NCBI GenBank assembly: GCA_947632115.1
Contig: CANROB010000004.1
Coordinates: 709-64,708 of the forward strand
Origin: an uncultured Bacilli bacterium
GTDB lineage: Bacteria; Bacillota_I; Bacilli_A; RF39; UBA660
Direction: 5' to 3'
DNA length: 64,000 bases
Part shown: one piece after another, positions 1,839-44,090 of the stretch
How positions within the stretch are numbered: position 1 is the stretch's first letter
Layout of the letters: every line of letters starts with the position of its first letter
Notes under the pieces: model-generated
The model's input: only the letters and a program-made list of their open reading frames with translations
The model's database searches: none
What the model was told of the DNA's origin: nothing
Translations under genes and position numbers: made by a program

Positions 1839-1927
1839 TGGTGCCTAAGGCCGGACTTGAACCGGCACGGGATTTGACTCCCGCAGGATTTTAAGTCCTG
1901 TGCGTCTACCAATTTCGCCACTCAGGC
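1839..1927 (-). tRNA. tRNA-Leu (anticodon UAA)
   Basis: Reverse complement GCCTGAGTGGCGAAATTGGTAGACGCACAGGACTTAAAATCCTG...GGTTCAAGTCCGGCCTTAGGCACCA. Acceptor GCCTGAG/CTTAGGC, anticodon loop CTTAAAA, long variable arm, encoded CCA. Confidence 0.9.
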
Positions 1928-1932
1928 ACGAA

Positions 1933-2008
1933 TGGTGTCCCGTTGGAGATTCGAACTCCAGACCCTTTGATTAAAAGTCAAATGCTCTACCGACTGAGCT
2001 AACGGAAC
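1933..2008 (-). tRNA. tRNA-Lys (anticodon UUU)
   Basis: Reverse complement GTTCCGTTAGCTCAGTCGGTAGAGCATTTGACTTTTAATCAAAGGGTCTGGAGTTCGAATCTCCAACGGGACACCA. Anticodon stem TTTGA/TCAAA, loop CTTTTAA, encoded CCA. Confidence 0.9.
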
Positions 2009-2021
2009 AAAACAACAAAGA

Positions 2022-2096
2022 TGGCTGCCTTGGCTAGATTCGAACTAGCGCATGCCACAGTCAAAGTGTGGTGCCTTACCACTTGGCTACAAGGCA
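2022..2096 (-). tRNA. tRNA-Gln (anticodon UUG)
   Basis: Reverse complement TGCCTTGTAGCCAAGTGGTAAGGCACCACACTTTGACTGTGGCATGCGCTAGTTCGAATCTAGCCAAGGCAGCCA. Anticodon stem CCACA/TGTGG, loop CTTTGAC, U1-A72 acceptor typical of Gln. Confidence 0.9.
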
Positions 2097-2110
2097 ATAC
2101 TATTAAAAAG

Positions 2111-2194
2111 TGGTGGAGGGAGATGGAGTCGAACCATCGAACCCGAAGGAACAGATTTACAGTCTGCCGCGTTTGACCACTTCGCTATCCCTCC
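2111..2194 (-). tRNA. tRNA-Tyr (anticodon GUA)
   Basis: Reverse complement GGAGGGATAGCGAAGTGGTCAAACGCGGCAGACTGTAAATCTGTTCCTTCGGGTTCGATGGTTCGACTCCATCTCCCTCCACCA. Anticodon loop CTGTAAA, extended variable arm, encoded CCA. Confidence 0.9.
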
Positions 2195-2201
2195 AAAAAA
2201 A

Positions 2202-2277
<76 letters not shown>

Positions 2278-2289
2278 AAAAAAAATAAA

Positions 2290-2366
2290 TGGTGGGCGAT
2301 ATAGGACTCGAACCTATGACCCCCTGCTTGTAAGGCAGGTGCTCTAACCAACTGAGCTAATCGCCC
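2290..2366 (-). tRNA. tRNA-Val (anticodon UAC)
   Basis: Reverse complement GGGCGATTAGCTCAGTTGGTTAGAGCACCTGCCTTACAAGCAGGGGGTCATAGGTTCGAGTCCTATATCGCCCACCA. Anticodon stem CCTGC/GCAGG, loop CTTACAA, encoded CCA. Confidence 0.9.
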
Positions 2367-3156: not shown

Positions 3157-3987
3157 GTCTATTAACCAGTCTATTTTAGGTAAAAACACGACTTTTTGAA
3201 AAAGATAGTAGAGATCTTTTAAAAAATCTTCATAGGCATCTACTTTTTCTAAGTATCTATCTAGGCAATGGTTATCCCCACCCTTTACAATGGTATCATA
3301 GCAATCAAAGTAGTAGGATGGATAAAGCATTCTAGCATAAAAAAGAAGATAATCTTGAGGTTCAAAATGCGTACGGTAAAAATAGAGTAGCAAGTCCTCC
3401 ATTTGAAATTTTCCTTCAAAAAATTTTATTTTGATATATTCTGCTAAATCCCTGACACGATAATCTACAGTATAATTTAAGGGATTCCAATAATCAAAAT
3501 CATCTGTCATACGATTATGGGCAATATAAAGAGGATGCTCTTTTTTGATGACTTGATAAAAGGAAATCGCATTTTCCGTCATGCCTTCATAGTAAAAGAA
3601 ACTACTTAATAGTTTTTCATCTGTTACCGTTTCCATATATCGTTCATAGTAATCTACCTTATTCATCCATAATTCATTCCAGGGTAGAATGGCACTCTTA
3701 AACATAGGAATTTGAAATTGTTCTAATACTTGCAGGCGAATAGGCATTACCGGATGCGTTTTTAAAAGAATATATGGTTTTTGATCAAGTGTGGTTATCA
3801 TTTCATGTTCTCGGTTCGGCACAATATCATAAAGAGGATACCCCCATGCCTTTAGTTGCTCGTAAAGTGAAAGTGGAATTTCATGCGCTAAGGGAACAAG
3901 GCAATAATCCTGAAAAAAATATCTAGAATCTTCATATGTTAAGTCTTCTACTTCTAATTCATAATAGTAGCGAATGGCATTTCTCAT
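3151..3987 (-). CDS. Hypothetical; possibly YutH/CotS-family (kinase-fold) spore-coat-associated protein
   Basis: 278-aa ORF with good coding character. The N-terminal pattern and its position next to a yutI-like gene recall Bacillus yutH. This is recollection only, with no catalytic motif verified. Confidence 0.35.
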   Translation of the reverse strand: MRNAIRYYYELEVEDLTYEDSRYFFQDYCLVPLAHEIPLSLYEQLKAWGYPLYDIVPNREHEMITTLDQKPYILLKTHPVMPIRLQVLEQFQIPMFKSAILPWNELWMNKVDYYERYMETVTDEKLLSSFFYYEGMTENAISFYQVIKKEHPLYIAHNRMTDDFDYWNPLNYTVDYRVRDLAEYIKIKFFEGKFQMEDLLLYFYRTHFEPQDYLLFYARMLYPSYYFDCYDTIVKGGDNHCLDRYLEKVDAYEDFLKDLYYLFQKVVFLPKIDWLIDK

Positions 3988-35935: not shown

Positions 35936-35944
35936 ATTATATCA
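35936..35944 (-). promoter_or_regulatory. Extended -10 promoter box (TGATATAAT) of the cgs-pgi operon
   Basis: Minus strand TTTTTTTTGATATAAT, 24 nt upstream of the cgs ATG. Confidence 0.5.
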
Positions 35945-38450: not shown

Positions 38451-38508
38451 AATACCATCCTAATATCATTATATCATAGTTTTTAAAAAAAGAAGAGATA
38501 TCCTCATT

Positions 38509-40478: not shown

Positions 40479-40584
40479 AGTTCACCTCACACCCATTATA
40501 TCAAAATAAAATTTTTTTGCGTAAAATTCTTTAAAAAAGAAAAAAAATATGTTACGATTTTTGTGACTAGATAAGGAGTAACTT

Positions 40585-40869
40585 ATGTTTTCATTTTTTA
40601 AAAAACAAACAACAATCCTTCCTGATGAATTTATGGATTTTCCACCTTATACAGGAAGAATAAAAAAAGGACCTATCATTCAAGAAACCCCTATTTATAA
40701 ACGTTACACCTATATTGTAAAGGGTGTAGGAGATTATCAACAACTTTTACTACAAAATGGATTTATGCAAAAAAGCAAAGTACGTTATGATAGAGGTTCT
40801 ATAGGGAACTATATTATTATAGAAAAAGTATGGAACGGATATAAACTTGCTTTCCATAAAAAGAAATAA
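40585..40869 (+). CDS. Hypothetical small protein (94 aa)
   Basis: AAGGAG SD; followed by the hairpin AAAGTAGAG-AATACC-CTCTACTTT plus a T-run (40868-40900). Confidence 0.5.
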   Translation: MFSFFKKQTTILPDEFMDFPPYTGRIKKGPIIQETPIYKRYTYIVKGVGDYQQLLLQNGFMQKSKVRYDRGSIGNYIIIEKVWNGYKLAFHKKK

Positions 40870-41772: not shown

Positions 41773-41809
41773 CCCCCTTTTTTCTTGTTTTGGTCGGCTA
41801 TTCTAACAT

Positions 41810-41836
41810 AAAAAAAAGGGAAAGTCAAACTTTCTC
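41810..41836 (-). terminator. Putative terminator overlapping the RT stop codon
   Basis: Minus strand GAGAAAGT-TTG-ACTTTCCC (6-7 bp stem, 3-nt loop) followed by T8. Confidence 0.45.
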
Positions 41837-43012
41837 TTTTGTAAACTCATAATATTCATGAACCAAACTACGATACCCTGTACTTTTTAATAGTTGATAA
41901 GGGACTTTTGATTTATCCGTTTTACTGTATCTTCCTGTTTTTAAGTAACGTAATTGCTGTTGAAAATAACTATCAATTTCTTTTAGACCACTACTCACTG
42001 TAAGAACAGGAAAATACCAAATACTCCAGTTTAATTCTTTCCCTGGTCTTTCATAAAAAAACTTATAATTAAAAATATTGTTTAAAGCCTTCATAGCTTT
42101 CTCACTAGGAACATTTTTTCGTAGCATCCAACGTCTAAGAGCTCTTGCCTTTCTTCTAATTTTGGCTTTCATTTTTTGCTTAGAATGAGGCGAGAGATTA
42201 ATTCCACAAGAAGAATAAAAGAAGCCTAAAAATTCAAAAGGTTCTCCCTTATCAATAAAGTATTCTTTCTTTTCATTGATCTCAAGATTTAAATCCTTAA
42301 AGGTAGAGCGAATTTCTTCTACTTTTTTTAAAAGTTCTTGTTTCGTTGGTAAAAAAAGAAGGATATCATCTGCATATCTAGCATAGCAAACATCTATCAT
42401 TTTCCAATCTAATTCCGATAAATAAAGATTAGATAAAAAGCAAGAAATCGGTGTTCCTGCCATAACTCCTTTTTCTTCTTCTAGAATCTCTCCTTGATAA
42501 AGAACTCTTTTATCTTCTAATAACTTCTCAAAAAACAAATAACATTTCTCATCCACTTTTTCCTTTAACATTTGAAGTAATTTAGGAACAGAAATACTAT
42601 TAAAATAGTTATGAATATCTACTTTATATCCATATCCTAAAGTCGTATGAACTACCTTCCAAAAAGCCTGTTTTGGACCAATCTTTTGGCGAAAAGAATA
42701 ACAATTAGGAGCGAATAAAAAGTCATATTCTCCTAATAAATAGTGGATCATTTTTAAAATAATTGTCTCTTCTTTAGAAAAAGAATACACTACTCTTTTT
42801 TGTCCAGAAGCATTTTTATTAATTTTCTTTTTCATAGGAATCGAAAAAGAATAATCACCAGCTACAATCTTAGAAGAAATTGGCAAATATTTTTTTTCAT
42901 CAATGTATTGTTTTAATTCTTCATATTCCTTTTTCGTTAAATTTCTTTGTTCTTTGTAATTTAAAAAAGAATACCAAGCATTTTGATCTATTAAACTGTC
43001 TAAAACAGACAT
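41825..43012 (-). CDS. Free-standing reverse transcriptase (RNA-directed DNA polymerase), unclassified family
   Basis: RT motifs read in order: IPMKKKINKNASGQKRVVY (1/2), CYSFRQKIGPKQAF (2a), YKVDIHNYFNSI (A), GVMAGTPISCFLSNLYLSELD (B), YARYADDILLF (C; YADD codons 42365-42376), LEINEKKE (D), FEFLGFFY (E). There is an RT0-like N-terminal extension and a basic thumb-like C-terminus of about 125 aa. GGTGGTG SD at 43017-43023. Confidence 0.9.
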   Translation of the reverse strand: MSVLDSLIDQNAWYSFLNYKEQRNLTKKEYEELKQYIDEKKYLPISSKIVAGDYSFSIPMKKKINKNASGQKRVVYSFSKEETIILKMIHYLLGEYDFLFAPNCYSFRQKIGPKQAFWKVVHTTLGYGYKVDIHNYFNSISVPKLLQMLKEKVDEKCYLFFEKLLEDKRVLYQGEILEEEKGVMAGTPISCFLSNLYLSELDWKMIDVCYARYADDILLFLPTKQELLKKVEEIRSTFKDLNLEINEKKEYFIDKGEPFEFLGFFYSSCGINLSPHSKQKMKAKIRRKARALRRWMLRKNVPSEKAMKALNNIFNYKFFYERPGKELNWSIWYFPVLTVSSGLKEIDSYFQQQLRYLKTGRYSKTDKSKVPYQLLKSTGYRSLVHEYYEFTKEKV

Positions 43013-43152
43013 ATTTCACCACCAAGGAAGAGAATCAATTGAATCATTGATGAAATCAATGAATGACAAGGTTATATATATCCCAGTCACTTGCAAAACT
43101 ATTTTATAGGATATACTGAACCCGCTACAAGTAGTGTTTCCACATCTCTTCC
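43013..43152 (-). ncRNA. Candidate structured 5' leader / RT-associated non-coding RNA
   Basis: 146 nt separate the TGATATAAT box from the RT ATG. Complementary segments on the minus strand: GGAAGAGA (43145-43152) with TCTCTTCC (43026-43033), a closing stem; TATATCC (43109-43115) with GGATATA (43077-43083); TCATTGAT (43055-43062) with ATCAATGA (43044-43051), TTC loop. No ORF. Confidence 0.4.
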
Positions 43153-43158
43153 ACAGTC

Positions 43159-43167
43159 ATTATATCA
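43159..43167 (-). promoter_or_regulatory. Extended -10 promoter box (TGATATAAT) of the RT module
   Basis: Minus strand TTTTTTTGATATAAT, immediately after the upstream terminator. The same box is seen in front of cgs, the SDR gene, the 333-aa gene and the 24048 gene. Confidence 0.5.
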
Positions 43168-43194
43168 AAAAAAGAAGTAGTTTTATACTACTTC
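43167..43194 (-). terminator. Rho-independent terminator of the kinase-like gene
   Basis: Minus strand GAAGTAGT-ATAAA-ACTACTTC followed by T7; the stem overlaps the TAG stop (43188-43190). Confidence 0.7.
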
Positions 43195-44090
43195 CTTACT
43201 AATCTTTTGAAATATTTCTCTTCTCCAAAATTACCTTGTTCTTCTAAATAATATTTAGAAGCAATAACAAAAGCACTTTCCGTAAAATATTCTCCTGGCT
43301 CATGGAAAGATAAAATAGCGTTCATTTTAGAGATGATTTCTTCCTCTTCTAATCCAATAAGTTGAAGTATATCAGAAAGACGAATTCTCTTTCCCGTATT
43401 AGGATTTTCTTGTCCAATCATTCCTAAATCTATTTGAAATGTCATAGCAAAATAGAAAAATAACAAACTTAATTTATCTAATTCTGAGGTAAATAATTTT
43501 TGATTACGATATTTCTTATGCATAAAGATTTCTTGACTTCTAAAAGTTGCAGAAGTTTCAATAGCCATATGATTTCTTATCTGCATTCCATCATAATTAA
43601 CCAATTCAATATTTCCATTTTCGTCTATAAAAATATTATCTAAAGAACAAAGATCTGGAAATACATACCCTAACGTATTTGCCCTTCTAAGAATATTTTC
43701 TACCTTAGCCAAAATAGTTGCATATTTTTCTAAGTTTTCTCTATCCTCTTTTGTTTGTGTTGCTAAATAGGTAGAAAAAGGAACTCCCTTAGCCTTAGGC
43801 ATAATATATCCAGCAAAATTGTTTTCCTCATATACTCCACATTTAGGAGACATAATTTCAGGAAGACACCTCTTCTTTTCTGTATCCATGATTTTCGTCT
43901 CTAAATCTCCTCCACAAAATTCTGAAACAAAAAGGAATTGAGGAGAGAAAAGCTTTAAGATACTGCCGTCTTGTAGTTCAAAGACAGAACTTTTTTCACT
44001 TTCTTTTAATAACTCTTTTCCTTGGAAACGATAATCGGTTAAAGAAATTCTAGGTAATCCTCTCCCGCCATGCTTGATTGGATACTTCAT
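43188..44090 (-). CDS. Atypical protein-kinase-fold protein (Hanks/APH/CotS-like)
   Basis: Catalytic-loop-like YVFPDLCSLDNIFIDENGNIELVNYDG (compare HRDLKPxNhhhd...hkhxDFG), a candidate beta3 Lys in GSILKLF, and no Gly-rich loop. 300 aa. Confidence 0.5.
   Translation of the reverse strand: MKYPIKHGGRGLPRISLTDYRFQGKELLKESEKSSVFELQDGSILKLFSPQFLFVSEFCGGDLETKIMDTEKKRCLPEIMSPKCGVYEENNFAGYIMPKAKGVPFSTYLATQTKEDRENLEKYATILAKVENILRRANTLGYVFPDLCSLDNIFIDENGNIELVNYDGMQIRNHMAIETSATFRSQEIFMHKKYRNQKLFTSELDKLSLLFFYFAMTFQIDLGMIGQENPNTGKRIRLSDILQLIGLEEEEIISKMNAILSFHEPGEYFTESAFVIASKYYLEEQGNFGEEKYFKRLVRK

Follow-up and report, generated by a model that had tools for sequence, protein, structure and literature searches.

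The 146-nt leader of the reverse transcriptase (RT) gene within the window analyzed here, a stretch of 64,000 nucleotides from an uncultured Bacilli bacterium, is a conserved folded RNA that has already been catalogued in Rfam as the orphan motif RT-5. The leader RNA is a further member of this known RNA family. By analogy with characterized relatives of the enzyme, it is probably the cognate noncoding RNA (ncRNA) of a UG26 Class 2 RT system, in which it would act as a scaffold and probably also as a cDNA template. We favor this reading because the leader matches RF03026, the gene behind it encodes a full-length UG26 RT, the RNA lies upstream of every such RT examined, its helices covary, its closing helix P1 lies at a fixed distance from the promoter, and the studied Class 2 UG RTs template on adjacent ncRNAs.

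The RT gene and its surroundings

The original prediction had called attention to a long, ORF-free gap ahead of the RT ATG, and the gap is indeed 146 nt in length (43158..43013, minus strand; start codon at 43012), with no ORF of ≥40 aa on the RT strand. The TGATATAAT box preceding it recurs, as had been reported, at 35936-35944, 38468-38476, and 40495-40503; these copies are likewise on the minus strand, and the box precedes the ATG of the 333-aa gene by 17 nt and that of the SDR gene by 16 nt. The features of the locus that flank or encompass the RNA are as follows:

41825..43012, minus strand: reverse transcriptase, 395 aa, assigned to the UG26 group (Class 2 UG/Abi) by PADLOC RT_UG26
43016..43023, minus strand: Shine-Dalgarno sequence of the RT gene, GGUGGUGA, 3 nt 5' of the ATG
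43024..43154, minus strand: the structured ncRNA, comprising an RT-5 family RNA plus P1 and P2 (covariance models, fold z)
43031..43136, minus strand: Rfam RF03026 (RT-5 RNA) match, model positions 1-104 of 104, 57.4 bits
43159..43167, minus strand: extended -10 promoter box TGATATAAT (sequence and eight close loci)
43171..43197, minus strand: a hairpin resembling an intrinsic terminator (11 stem pairs, loop of 5) with a T-run, belonging to the upstream 300-aa gene
40585..40869, plus strand: c5, an orphan-family protein of 94 aa encoded 3' of the RT gene on the convergent strand

In an alignment of the eight close loci, TGNTATAAT is invariant and is separated from P1 by a constant 6-7 nt in every case. 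As this distance runs from the -10 box to the first base of P1, the helix should begin at approximately +1 of the transcript, and the predicted transcription start would fall at ~43152-43154. The terminator-like hairpin, which is kept in L001 and L003 (alignment A2), sets the 300-aa gene apart from the leader's own promoter, while the Shine-Dalgarno sequence GGUGGUGA is conserved in the eight close loci.

Judged by its sequence, the gene behind the leader encodes a full-length UG26 enzyme, i.e., a Class 2 UG/Abi RT. PADLOC RT_UG26 matched at E = 1.2e-135, with residues 1-392 aligned to profile positions 1-397 of 398, and the next model was UG27 (E = 3.4e-32, residues 3-361), with UG17/DRT10 (E = 9.9e-30) also among the next-best; the Drt9 (E = 9e-22) and Drt2 (E = 7.7e-18, partial) models were weaker, and the best retron-type models ranged from E = 1.4e-16 to 2.4e-14. 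Pfam returned only RVT_1 (residues 64-264), and an RT without an extra known domain is a Class 2 trait. The YADD active site occupies residues 213-216, of which Y213, D215, and D216 are invariant in 75 homologues, as are the tyrosines Y372 and Y380 of the C-terminal region. The AF2 model (pLDDT 93.6) shows a compact RT whose C-terminal part is helical, and among solved structures it most resembles the GsI-IIC group II intron RT (TM 0.76) and DRT9 (TM 0.62-0.66), the latter being the closest solved DRT structure; by sequence, the RT matches DRT9 at E = 2.3e-23. In the literature that we searched, UG26 appears as an RT group only in Mestre et al. (2022) and in one virome survey. The former rated its association with defense as inconclusive, described no ncRNA for UG26, and found a YcjD/Vsr-like endonuclease as an optional feature beside 9 of 35 members (Mestre et al. 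2022). This endonuclease was not seen in the window, where the RT has 300-aa and 295-aa proteins as neighbors.

The RT is surrounded by housekeeping genes whose synteny is conserved (Coat_F-like, CmpB-like, SDR, and a 412-aa gene) rather than by a defense island. The upstream 300-aa protein is weakly kinase-like and has a weak PADLOC STK_OB match (E = 2.2e-6), which was the only PADLOC match among three scanned neighbors, c5 not being one of these. c5 itself is a probable accessory protein traveling with UG26 RTs. It is present in 8/8 loci of the window clade, abuts the RT in nine further loci, and belongs to a family of 142 proteins; for many of these the longest contig has the length recorded for an RT match, suggesting that the two lie on one contig. 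No significant Pfam match was obtained for c5, apart from one weak YutD-like match (E = 0.12), and its AF2 model (pLDDT 91.4) had no PDB fold match at E ≤ 0.001. Likewise, c1 and c11 had no significant Pfam match and c1 had no PDB sequence match. Homology between c1 and c5 was considered and rejected, as hhalign gave a probability of 12% with an alignment restricted to the N-terminal MGLF motif. Neither a SLATT domain nor any other significant Pfam domain was found in c5, c1, c11, or the neighboring proteins.

The leader is a conserved and covarying RT-5 RNA

The segment 43013-43160 folds with a minimum free energy (MFE) of -40.6 kcal/mol, compared to -30.0 ± 3.2 for 200 dinucleotide shuffles (z = -3.27), only one of which was as good. 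The pairing of the leader ends and the two internal hairpins named in the original prediction are all present in both the MFE and the centroid structures. For the trimmed transcript 43024-43152, the corresponding values are -36.4 vs. -24.2 ± 3.5 (z = -3.53), and the GC content of the leader region is 35%. A search of Rfam identified RF03026 as the sole non-tRNA match at gathering threshold in the whole window, scoring 57.4 bits where the gathering score is 45.7 (E = 1.5e-9 / 1.6e-8). The match stops 18 nt 5' of the RT start codon on the same strand, and does likewise in the six genome-derived homologous loci (L001-L006), all of which have a full-length match above the gathering score. RT-5 (Rfam RF03026; Weinberg et al. 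2017, PMC5737381) is thus the same RNA as the leader and similarly adjoins an RT gene. However, the RF03026 consensus begins only in the 3' half of P2 and reaches no further than the initial bases of the P1 3' strand, such that the model lacks the closing helix P1 and the hairpin P2, and its structure line lacks a pseudoknot, whereas the leader has all three. RF03026 also has no assigned RT class or function, while the leader is here tied to UG26. The literature searched mentions RT-5 or RF03026 nowhere.

The elements of the RNA, as resolved by folding and by comparison of its homologues, are:

43145..43152, minus strand: P1 5' strand GGAAGAGA, all purine (fold and covariation)
43134..43143, minus strand: P2, a small hairpin GUG-GAAA-CAC of variable length (fold; helix 2, 3/3 pairs changed on both sides)
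43126..43132, minus strand: pseudoknot 5' strand ACUUGUA in junction J2/3 (covariation)
43069..43123, minus strand: P3-P3b-P4, a long bulged hairpin (fold; helices 5-7, 94.7-98.8% paired)
43089..43095, minus strand: pseudoknot 3' strand UGCAAGU, inside the near-invariant loop UUGCA (43096-43092) (covariation)
43044..43062, minus strand: P5 hairpin TCATTGAT-TTC-ATCAATGA, as RNA UCAUUGAU-UUC-AUCAAUGA (fold and helix 8)
43034..43043, minus strand: J5/1, the single-stranded stretch UUCAAUUGAU, a candidate template region
43026..43033, minus strand: P1 3' strand TCTCTTCC / UCUCUUCC, all pyrimidine, 2 nt 5' of the Shine-Dalgarno sequence

Conservation of the leader among homologous RT loci proved to be universal, with the RNA located 5' of the RT on the same strand in 86/86 of the UG26-type loci fetched, a count that includes one locus (L037) in which the 3' part of the RNA was recognized by eye only. 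In 73 sources, our R1 covariance model placed a full-length RNA on the RT strand directly 5' of the gene, and the R2 model added 13 more, one of them truncated by the end of its contig and another matching only in part; the window domain itself scores 158.7 bits with R1 and 109.6 bits with R2. The RNA is absent only from L087, the single distant viral RT locus, where the R2 model found none; a viral contig collection yielded just one RT match, weak and partial and without the RNA. The RNA always ends 14-25 nt 5' of the start codon. Within the window clade, the leader retains 74-91% nucleotide identity in five of six comparisons, compared to 70-75% for the RT coding sequence. It should also be mentioned that the UG26/RT-5 system is found in gut and rumen Bacillota and Bacteroidota.

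Covariation, which the original prediction had proposed to look for across leaders, is extensive. Among 68 distinct leaders, 95.5% of the alignment cells pair vs. 72.7% in shuffles, and both sides have changed in 37 of 43 pairs. The covariation score of 0.678 compares with 0.25 for shuffles and with 0.11-0.17 once the partner is displaced by 1-3 columns. Compensatory changes occur in all eight helices scored, the pseudoknot being counted as two. The end-closing pairing GGAAGAGA/TCTCTTCC is real, as helix 1 is 97.1% paired with compensatory changes in nine of its ten pairs, and in 65 of the 68 sequences P1 pairs an all-purine strand with an all-pyrimidine one. Directly after its 5' strand is a near-invariant junction U-G, which creates a 'GAUG' at 43146-43143; G43143, one nucleotide past the strand, is 94% conserved. 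The predicted TATATCC (43115..43109)/GGATATA (43083..43077) helix is both folded and covarying as part of P3-P3b-P4, where 13 of 16 pairs are changed on both sides. The TCATTGAT-TTC-ATCAATGA hairpin, P5, was similarly borne out by compensatory changes in 7/7 pairs that include all four pair types; its structure is kept while its sequence varies widely. Collectively, the helices of the RF03026 family (P3, P3b, P4, and P5) are 94.7-98.8% paired, with 20 of 23 pairs changed on both sides. The comparison also supports a pseudoknot between the P3-P4 loop and the P2/P3 junction. This putative interaction (helices 3 and 4) is 90% paired, with 4/6 pairs compensatory, and takes the form of CCUGCA/UGCAGG, CCCGU/ACGGG, or UCUGCA/UGCAGA in other leaders. 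The near-invariant nucleotides are concentrated at the multi-helix junction.

Candidate templates and comparison with known systems

A conserved and covarying fold, the RF03026 match, and the class of the RT all support the earlier suggestion that the leader may be a template or scaffold RNA, with the templating role argued from its relatives. The conditions that the original prediction had set for its refutation, as far as they could be examined, also turned out in its favor, namely conservation among homologous loci, folding energy relative to shuffles, and the position of the promoter. The experimentally studied Class 2 UG RTs all template on a neighboring ncRNA (PMC12632851; PMC9226505; bioRxiv 10.64898/2026.09.22.753630). 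DRT10 and telomerase have their template immediately 3' of a stable stem-loop, and the UG27 template is a sequence-diverse central hairpin. By such analogies, the likeliest template in the leader might be the 3' portion beside P1, i.e., J5/1 and possibly P5, although our confidence in this placement is low. P5 could alternatively be a template-boundary element, in analogy to SL5 of DRT10 (PMC12632851).

J5/1 comprises a conserved UUCAA followed by 4-6 variable nt. In the window, J5/1 and its flanks read UGAUUC-AAU-UGAUUC, a direct repeat with a period of 9 located directly after P5, and the J5/1 of L053, L009, and L082 have repeats of 4-6 nt that differ in sequence. An A-B-A' pattern is not enriched in J5/1, as it occurs in 33/68 leaders vs. 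32.0 expected from within-region shuffles; the mean best repeat of the 68 leaders (3.53) is marginally above that of mononucleotide shuffles (3.28 ± 0.10). A DRT10-like A-B-A' template in J5/1 is accordingly a candidate in which we place little confidence. Direct repeats elsewhere in the RNA (P4 loop, P3 3' strand) revealed nothing consistent. Two further ideas were rejected. A DRT9-like poly-U template is not a universal feature: a run of ≥5 U is present at or after the P1 3' strand in 56/68 leaders, but is missing in the window clade, which has UCUCUUCCUUGGUGGUGA in its place. An anti-Shine-Dalgarno pairing CACUACU/GGUGGUG is broken in L004, L005, and L007, which are among the eight closest loci. 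A small ORF starting from the GAUG after P1 is unlikely, as it has six codons to its stop in the window and 3/68 leaders lack the AUG; the purine tract abuts this AUG with zero spacing.

DRT10 consists of a UG17 RT, a 137-nt ncRNA, and a SLATT protein, and performs telomerase-like tandem-repeat synthesis (PMC12632851). Like UG26, it employs a Class 2 UG RT, and the UG17 model covers most of the window RT. Its ncRNA is of similar size, with a central closing stem decorated with smaller stem-loops, and is single-stranded immediately 3' of a stable hairpin, as is the leader; in the window, this segment contains the A-B-A' repeat of period 9. Furthermore, the C-terminal tyrosines that are invariant in UG26 could act as a protein primer, as in DRT10. 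Unlike UG26, DRT10 has a SLATT partner, which was not found here, whereas the UG26 ncRNA is directly 5' of the RT, and the A-B-A' arrangement of DRT10 is not enriched across RT-5 leaders. UG27 comprises an RT, a sORF, a bORF, and arrays of ~150-nt ncRNA units that give rise to short cDNA hairpins (bioRxiv 10.64898/2026.09.22.753630; PMC9226505). It shares with UG26 an ncRNA unit of ~150 nt with conserved structure and variable sequence, small accessory proteins without known domains, and a distribution mainly in gut Bacteroidota and Bacillota. However, UG27 is prophage- or virus-borne with unit arrays, while UG26 carries just one unit and is all but missing from the viral contig collection, and neither of the UG27 motifs, AUCN7UANAG and UUYA, is evident in the leader. 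DRT9, a UG28 RT with an ncRNA that directs protein-primed poly-dA synthesis (PMC12483538; PMC9226505), resembles UG26 in having two components, an RT and a highly conserved upstream ncRNA. Most RT-5 leaders also recall DRT9 in their U-runs, which the window clade lacks, and for the window RT the Drt9 model gives a far lower score than the UG26 model. As for retrons, their msr-msd also lies immediately 5' of the RT, has inverted-repeat ends, and carries a conserved G beside the 5' strand of the closing helix, but the window RT falls outside of the retron clade and no Rfam retron msr family matched the leader or the window. The homopurine/homopyrimidine P1 further distinguishes the RT-5 leader from retrons, for which, to our knowledge, a strictly homopurine/homopyrimidine closing helix is not known.

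Alternative explanations and the proposed system

If the leader is the cognate ncRNA of the UG26 RT, then transcription from the extended -10 promoter would yield the RNA as the 5' end of a transcript from which the RT is also translated, and the RT would bind the junction core of the RNA. The enzyme would then copy part of the RNA into cDNA, as do the DRT2, DRT9, DRT10, and UG27 enzymes, with P1 serving to place the conserved 5' GAUG beside J5/1. A small accessory protein would probably complete the system, this being c5 in the window clade and the unrelated c1 elsewhere.

The leader might instead be solely a cis-regulatory 5' UTR, bound by the RT or another factor to tune the translation or stability of the RT mRNA, with no DNA being made. 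The RNA ends 14-25 nt from the start codon and its P1 3' strand stops 2 nt short of the Shine-Dalgarno sequence, both of which would suit such a role, as would the pyrimidine-only makeup of this strand, which could serve as a ribosome standby site masked by P1. We nevertheless find this explanation improbable, since P1 excludes both the Shine-Dalgarno sequence and the start codon, the candidate anti-Shine-Dalgarno pairing is not kept among the eight closest loci, the characterized RT relatives all template on a neighboring ncRNA (PMC12632851), and a pseudoknotted multi-helix junction of ~130 nt whose junction nucleotides are invariant goes far beyond the needs of an operator. Even less likely is a retron-like arrangement, in which P1 would correspond to the a1/a2 repeats and the conserved G would prime from its 2'-OH to yield a branched msDNA from the 3' part. 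The closing helix, the near-invariant G43143, and the single-stranded RNA directly 5' of the P1 3' strand would all fit, and many RT motifs have been speculated to take part in retrons (Weinberg et al. 2017). Against this stand the RT itself, for which the best retron-type model reaches E = 1.4e-16 vs. 1.2e-135 for UG26, the absence of an Rfam retron msr match in the leader, the protein-primed synthesis of the Class 2 UG enzymes DRT9 and DRT10 (PMC12632851), and the invariant Y372 and Y380 in the C-terminal region, where DRT10 has its priming residue.

P1 also juxtaposes the ends of a 105-126 nt loop, as the closing helix does in the DRT2 ncRNA, which raises the idea of DRT2-like rolling-circle copying around the closed loop into a concatemer with a never-ending ORF. 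We rejected such an endless ORF, because a concatenated loop is stop-free in just 10/68 leaders in sense and 11/68 in antisense (counts over the distinct leaders taken as a set), and loop lengths are evenly spread over the three residues modulo 3. Together with the weak and partial Drt2 match of the RT (E = 7.7e-18), this makes the DRT2-like scenario highly improbable. Lastly, the original prediction had itself cautioned that complements of 7-8 bp can arise by chance in AT-rich sequence, in which case the gap would be a mere spacer. Short complements are frequent at 35% GC, but chance structure is refuted by the fold z of -3.3 to -3.5, by the RF03026 match above threshold, and by the presence of the RNA in all homologous loci, where the leaders span 26-61% GC and all eight helices show compensatory changes; the three helices originally named are themselves kept by compensatory changes in 68 leaders.

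Among these possibilities, the cognate ncRNA of a UG26 system remains our preferred reading of the leader. A more specific version of it, which we offer tentatively and consider less likely than not, is that the UG26 RT, the RT-5 RNA, and c5/c1 might form a chromosomal, non-phage-borne system with a DNA product unlike those of DRT2, DRT9, DRT10, and UG27. Candidate products would be a short tandem repeat from J5/1, which for the window locus is predicted to be (AATTGAATC)n, or a short cDNA of the variable P5 hairpin, with the homopurine/homopyrimidine P1 as a built-in primer-template-like duplex docking the template in the RT active site.

Each Class 2 UG RT studied so far makes a different and unexpected DNA product from its neighboring ncRNA, namely de novo gene synthesis for DRT2, poly-dA for DRT9, telomerase-like repeats for DRT10, and hairpin cDNAs for UG27. 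UG26, an uncharacterized RT group, and RT-5, an Rfam orphan since 2017, are now tied to each other by a universal association in the loci examined, and the closing helix P1, the second hairpin P2, and the pseudoknot are new beyond the Rfam model. The purine-only/pyrimidine-only P1 is a concrete and unusual constraint for any mechanism. With this association, the extended RNA model, and two candidate accessory proteins (c5 and c1), UG26 becomes directly testable, and the system may offer a programmable RT-RNA pair in compact form.

Identity and setting of the leader

The reverse transcriptase (RT) gene downstream of the leader encodes a 395-aa protein that matches the PADLOC model RT_UG26 over its full length (E = 1.2e-135), with the next models (UG27, UG4, and UG17) following at about 1e-30, and its only Pfam domain is RVT_1. 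UG26, of which Mestre et al. 2022 (PMC9226505) knew 35 members, belongs to the Class 2 UG/Abi RTs; in that study its association with defence is inconclusive and no ncRNA is described. An AlphaFold2 model of the protein (pLDDT 93.6) most closely resembles the group II intron RT GsI-IIC (TM 0.76), followed by G2L4 and DRT9 (TM 0.62-0.66); we found no solved UG26 structure.

The original prediction described a long, ORF-free, structured leader ahead of this gene, and inspection of the sequence located all of its claimed elements on the minus strand. The gap between the extended -10 box and the RT ATG is indeed 146 nt and holds no minus-strand ORF of at least 40 aa, GGAAGAGA (43152..43145) is complementary to and can pair with UCUCUUCC (43033..43026), and the two inner hairpins lie at 43115..43109 with 43083..43077 and at 43062..43044. 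All three promoters offered for comparison are present as well, with a box-to-ATG distance of 16-17 nt for the two that were measured. The window contains 13 copies of the extended -10 box (TGNTATAAT) vs 5.9 expected, 12 of them on the minus strand, and those 16-17 nt from a start codon imply leaders of only ~10 nt, scarcely more than a Shine-Dalgarno sequence. Since a terminator-like hairpin directly precedes the box of the RT leader, this leader appears to have its own promoter.

Signals around the leader
43197..43171: terminator-like hairpin, directly upstream of the leader's -10 box
43167..43159, minus strand: extended -10 box TGATATAAT
43023-43016, minus strand: Shine-Dalgarno sequence of the RT gene
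41825..43012, minus strand: RT gene (start codon 43012)
38468-38476, 40495-40503, 35936-35944, and others: further extended -10 boxes, several 16-17 nt from a start codon

A single Rfam family matches this region, namely RF03026 ("RT-5 RNA"), which aligns over its full model at 43031..43136 (-) with a score of 57.4 bits (gathering score 45.7; E = 1.5e-9) and is the sole non-tRNA family in the whole window at the gathering threshold. RT-5 is among 19 "RT" motifs adjoining reverse-transcriptase genes that were reported without an assigned function, a retron or DGR role being speculated (Weinberg et al. 2017, PMC5737381). In the literature searched, no paper names RT-5, and UG26 does not appear beyond the classification of Mestre et al. 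2022. The leader is a further member of an RNA family that is already catalogued but has no assigned function, and which is now linked to UG26 RTs. As the RF03026 consensus begins in the 3' half of P2 and stops just inside the P1 3' strand, the closing helix (P1) and the P2 hairpin extend the catalogued motif, and so, judging by its structure line, does the pseudoknot.

Structure and conservation of the RNA

The predicted folding is stronger than expected by chance, as the minimum free energy (MFE) of 43013-43160 is -40.6 kcal/mol vs -30.0 +/- 3.2 for shuffled sequences (z = -3.27), and that of the trimmed transcript 43024-43152 is -36.4 vs -24.2 +/- 3.5 (z = -3.53). For both segments, the three helices originally proposed appear in the MFE and centroid structures. 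We then scored a structure of 43 pairs, comprising the closing helix (extended to 10 pairs), the inner helices, and a pseudoknot noticed in the alignment, across 68 distinct sequences of homologous leaders. In total, 95.5% of cells were paired vs 72.7% in shuffles (reached by 0 of 500), and changes on both sides were seen in 37 of the 43 pairs. The covariation score was 0.678 vs 0.247 for shuffles and 0.11-0.17 with partners slid by 1-3 columns; because the alignment was built around the nested helices, it is biased toward them, whereas the pseudoknot was no part of the model and the slid controls gave far lower scores.

Helices of the RNA (minus strand) and their support in the alignment
43152-43145 with 43033-43026: P1, 97.1% of cells paired, both-side changes in 9 of 10 pairs
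43143-43134: P2, 95.6% paired, both-side changes in 3 of 3 pairs
43132-43126 with 43095-43089: pseudoknot, 90% paired and both-side changes in 4 of 6 pairs for its main 6-pair helix
43123-43069: P3-P4, 94.7-98.8% paired and both-side changes in 13 of 16 pairs for P3, P3b, and P4
43062-43044: P5, 97.7% paired, both-side changes in 7 of 7 pairs
43043-43034: J5/1, the single strand between P5 and P1

The junction is a cluster of near-invariant nucleotides, which include GAUG 3' of the P1 5' strand, GG at the start of P3, an A-G bulge, UUGCA in the loop, GUA, GU ahead of P5, UUCAA behind P5, and UC at the start of the P1 3' strand. In one relative (L006, ~3930-3960), P5 is longer by ~16 nt of AT-rich sequence with the remaining RNA unaltered, which fits a tolerance of P5 for length.

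The leader is also conserved among homologous loci. Six genome loci, at 56-71% protein identity and drawn from uncultured Bacilli plus a MAG labelled Muribaculaceae, all carry RT-5 above threshold directly upstream of the RT. Within the window clade, the leader is 74-91% identical to the window at the nucleotide level in five of six comparisons vs 70-75% for the coding sequence. Metagenomes contributed at least 80 loci at 41-62% identity, while a viral collection gave only one weak partial RT match. A covariance model of the whole leader, closing helix included, was built from the window and its seven closest relatives, in which the region from the -10 box through the start codon is strikingly conserved and the box sits at a fixed 6-7 nt before the first P1 base. 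Among the matches listed, 73 of 88 sources had a full-length match to this model, placed immediately 5' of the RT in the same orientation, and the leaders ranged from 26 to 61% GC. A second model, built from these 73, added 13 sources among the matches listed (11 full length, one cut by a contig end, and one partial). At the last UG26 locus (L037), which is cut off 5', the loop, P5, J5/1, and the P1 3' strand are visible by eye. The RNA-RT association is therefore universal in the sampled loci among the matches listed, where a distant viral RT (L087) is the sole locus without such an RNA. L037 also has an added GC-rich hairpin (ACAGCCCCGCTTGCGGGGCTGT, 60-110) between the RNA 3' end and the RT start, which may keep the ncRNA apart from the RT transcript at that locus.

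Neighbouring genes

Across MAGs of the window clade, the RT region lies between housekeeping-type genes in a conserved order (Coat_F-like, CmpB-like, RT region, SDR, and a 412-aa gene), with a few variable genes around the RT and no recognisable defence island at this locus. The window also has a cluster of six tRNA genes at 1842-2366 (-). Among the matches listed, nearly every locus with sufficient flank encodes one of two orphan families, c5 or c1, which share an N-terminal MGLF..LKK motif and nothing further. The c5 protein is probably an accessory protein or effector; it is present in 8 of 8 window-clade loci and directly adjoins the RT at 9 loci of a second clade, in both cases always 3' of the RT gene and on the convergent strand. 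It has 142 relatives among 5.8 billion proteins, and equal longest-contig sizes suggest that many of these share a contig with an RT match. We found no significant Pfam match for c5 and no PDB fold match for its model (pLDDT 91.4). In a large GC-rich clade, c1 (~170-180 aa) ends just ahead of the RNA on the same strand at 59 loci, an apparent c1-ncRNA-RT operon; in this protein a low-complexity linker joins the N-terminal motif to a conserved C-terminal domain.

A third family, c11 (~240 aa, no Pfam match), adjoins the RT in 7 of 7 closest relatives, being 3' of it in L001-L006 and upstream in L007, but is missing in the window, where a 295-aa gene follows the RT. A promoter-like site upstream of the latter (start 41772) suggests that it is transcribed on its own. 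The gene that immediately precedes the leader encodes a 300-aa protein with a weak kinase-like PADLOC match (STK_OB, E = 2.2e-6) and no Pfam match. Of the 8 close loci, only the window, L003, and L006 have it there, and it is thus probably not core to the system.

Genes and signals near the RT
40585..40869, plus strand: c5, 94 aa in the window (family 94-160 aa)
43188-44090, minus strand: 300-aa protein
41800-41828, minus strand: promoter-like TTGACT-17-TAGAAT with TG, overlapping the last RT codons
L011 2431-2976, L017 3281-3826, and 57 other loci (none in the window): c1
L001 5194-5961, L007 3078-3800: c11

The closing helix and the candidate template

A distinctive feature of P1 is its composition. 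In 65 of the 68 distinct sequences, purines alone make up the 5' strand and pyrimidines alone the 3' strand (99.4% for each strand), a bias that spans 22 versions of the 5' strand. In the other helices, purines account for 35-79% of the 5' strand, and all four pair types occur. P1 covaries exclusively by AU<->GC transitions (alignment A4 columns 1-10 with 227-237; window 43145-43152 with 43026-43033), which indicates a constraint beyond base pairing. P1 could possibly be a duplex that resembles a primer-template and docks in the RT cleft. It is also possible that P1 forms a triplex with a downstream U-tract, although that tract is missing in the window clade, that its pyrimidine tract doubles in translation of the RT, or that it behaves like a polypurine tract.

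Every Class 2 UG RT examined to date templates on an adjacent ncRNA, with DRT2 synthesizing a gene by rolling circle, DRT9 making poly-dA from a U-tract, and DRT10 making protein-primed tandem repeats from an A-B-A' segment directly 3' of a boundary stem-loop (PMC12632851; bioRxiv 10.64898/2026.09.22.753630). By homology and anatomy, the leader would most likely be an RT-bound scaffold that includes the template, and computation, within its reach, supports the template or scaffold role originally proposed for it. Unlike the gene-making concatemer of DRT2, a stop-free concatemer ORF is rare in UG26 leaders (10-11 of 68 sequences), and unlike the templating U-tract of DRT9, a U-run is not universal and is missing in the window clade, so both variants were rejected. 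The window RNA carries a clear A-B-A' repeat directly 3' of P5 (UGAUUC-AAU-UGAUUC, period 9), where L053, L009, and L082 carry repeats that differ in sequence. Across the family, such repeats are not enriched over within-region shuffles (33 vs 32.0 of 68 sequences), and the mean best repeat barely exceeds that of mononucleotide shuffles (3.53 vs 3.28 +/- 0.10). With no enrichment and the DRT2 and DRT9 variants ruled out, the template location is a guess, for which we favour J5/1 with or without P5, because P1 would set the conserved 5' GAUG beside J5/1, and because this stretch combines a conserved anchor (UUCAA), a variable part, and a stable hairpin of diverse sequence, which are template marks in DRT10 and UG27. 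In the C-terminal region of the RT, two invariant tyrosines (Y372 and Y380) are candidates for protein priming, by analogy with the C-terminal priming residue of DRT10.

Overall, the original observation was borne out in full, and the leader element is newly tied to UG26, a class without prior characterisation. An ncRNA in a Class 2 UG RT locus is what a specialist would expect; what stands out is that the system is uncharacterised, that the association is universal in the sample, and that the closing helix has its odd homopurine/homopyrimidine makeup.
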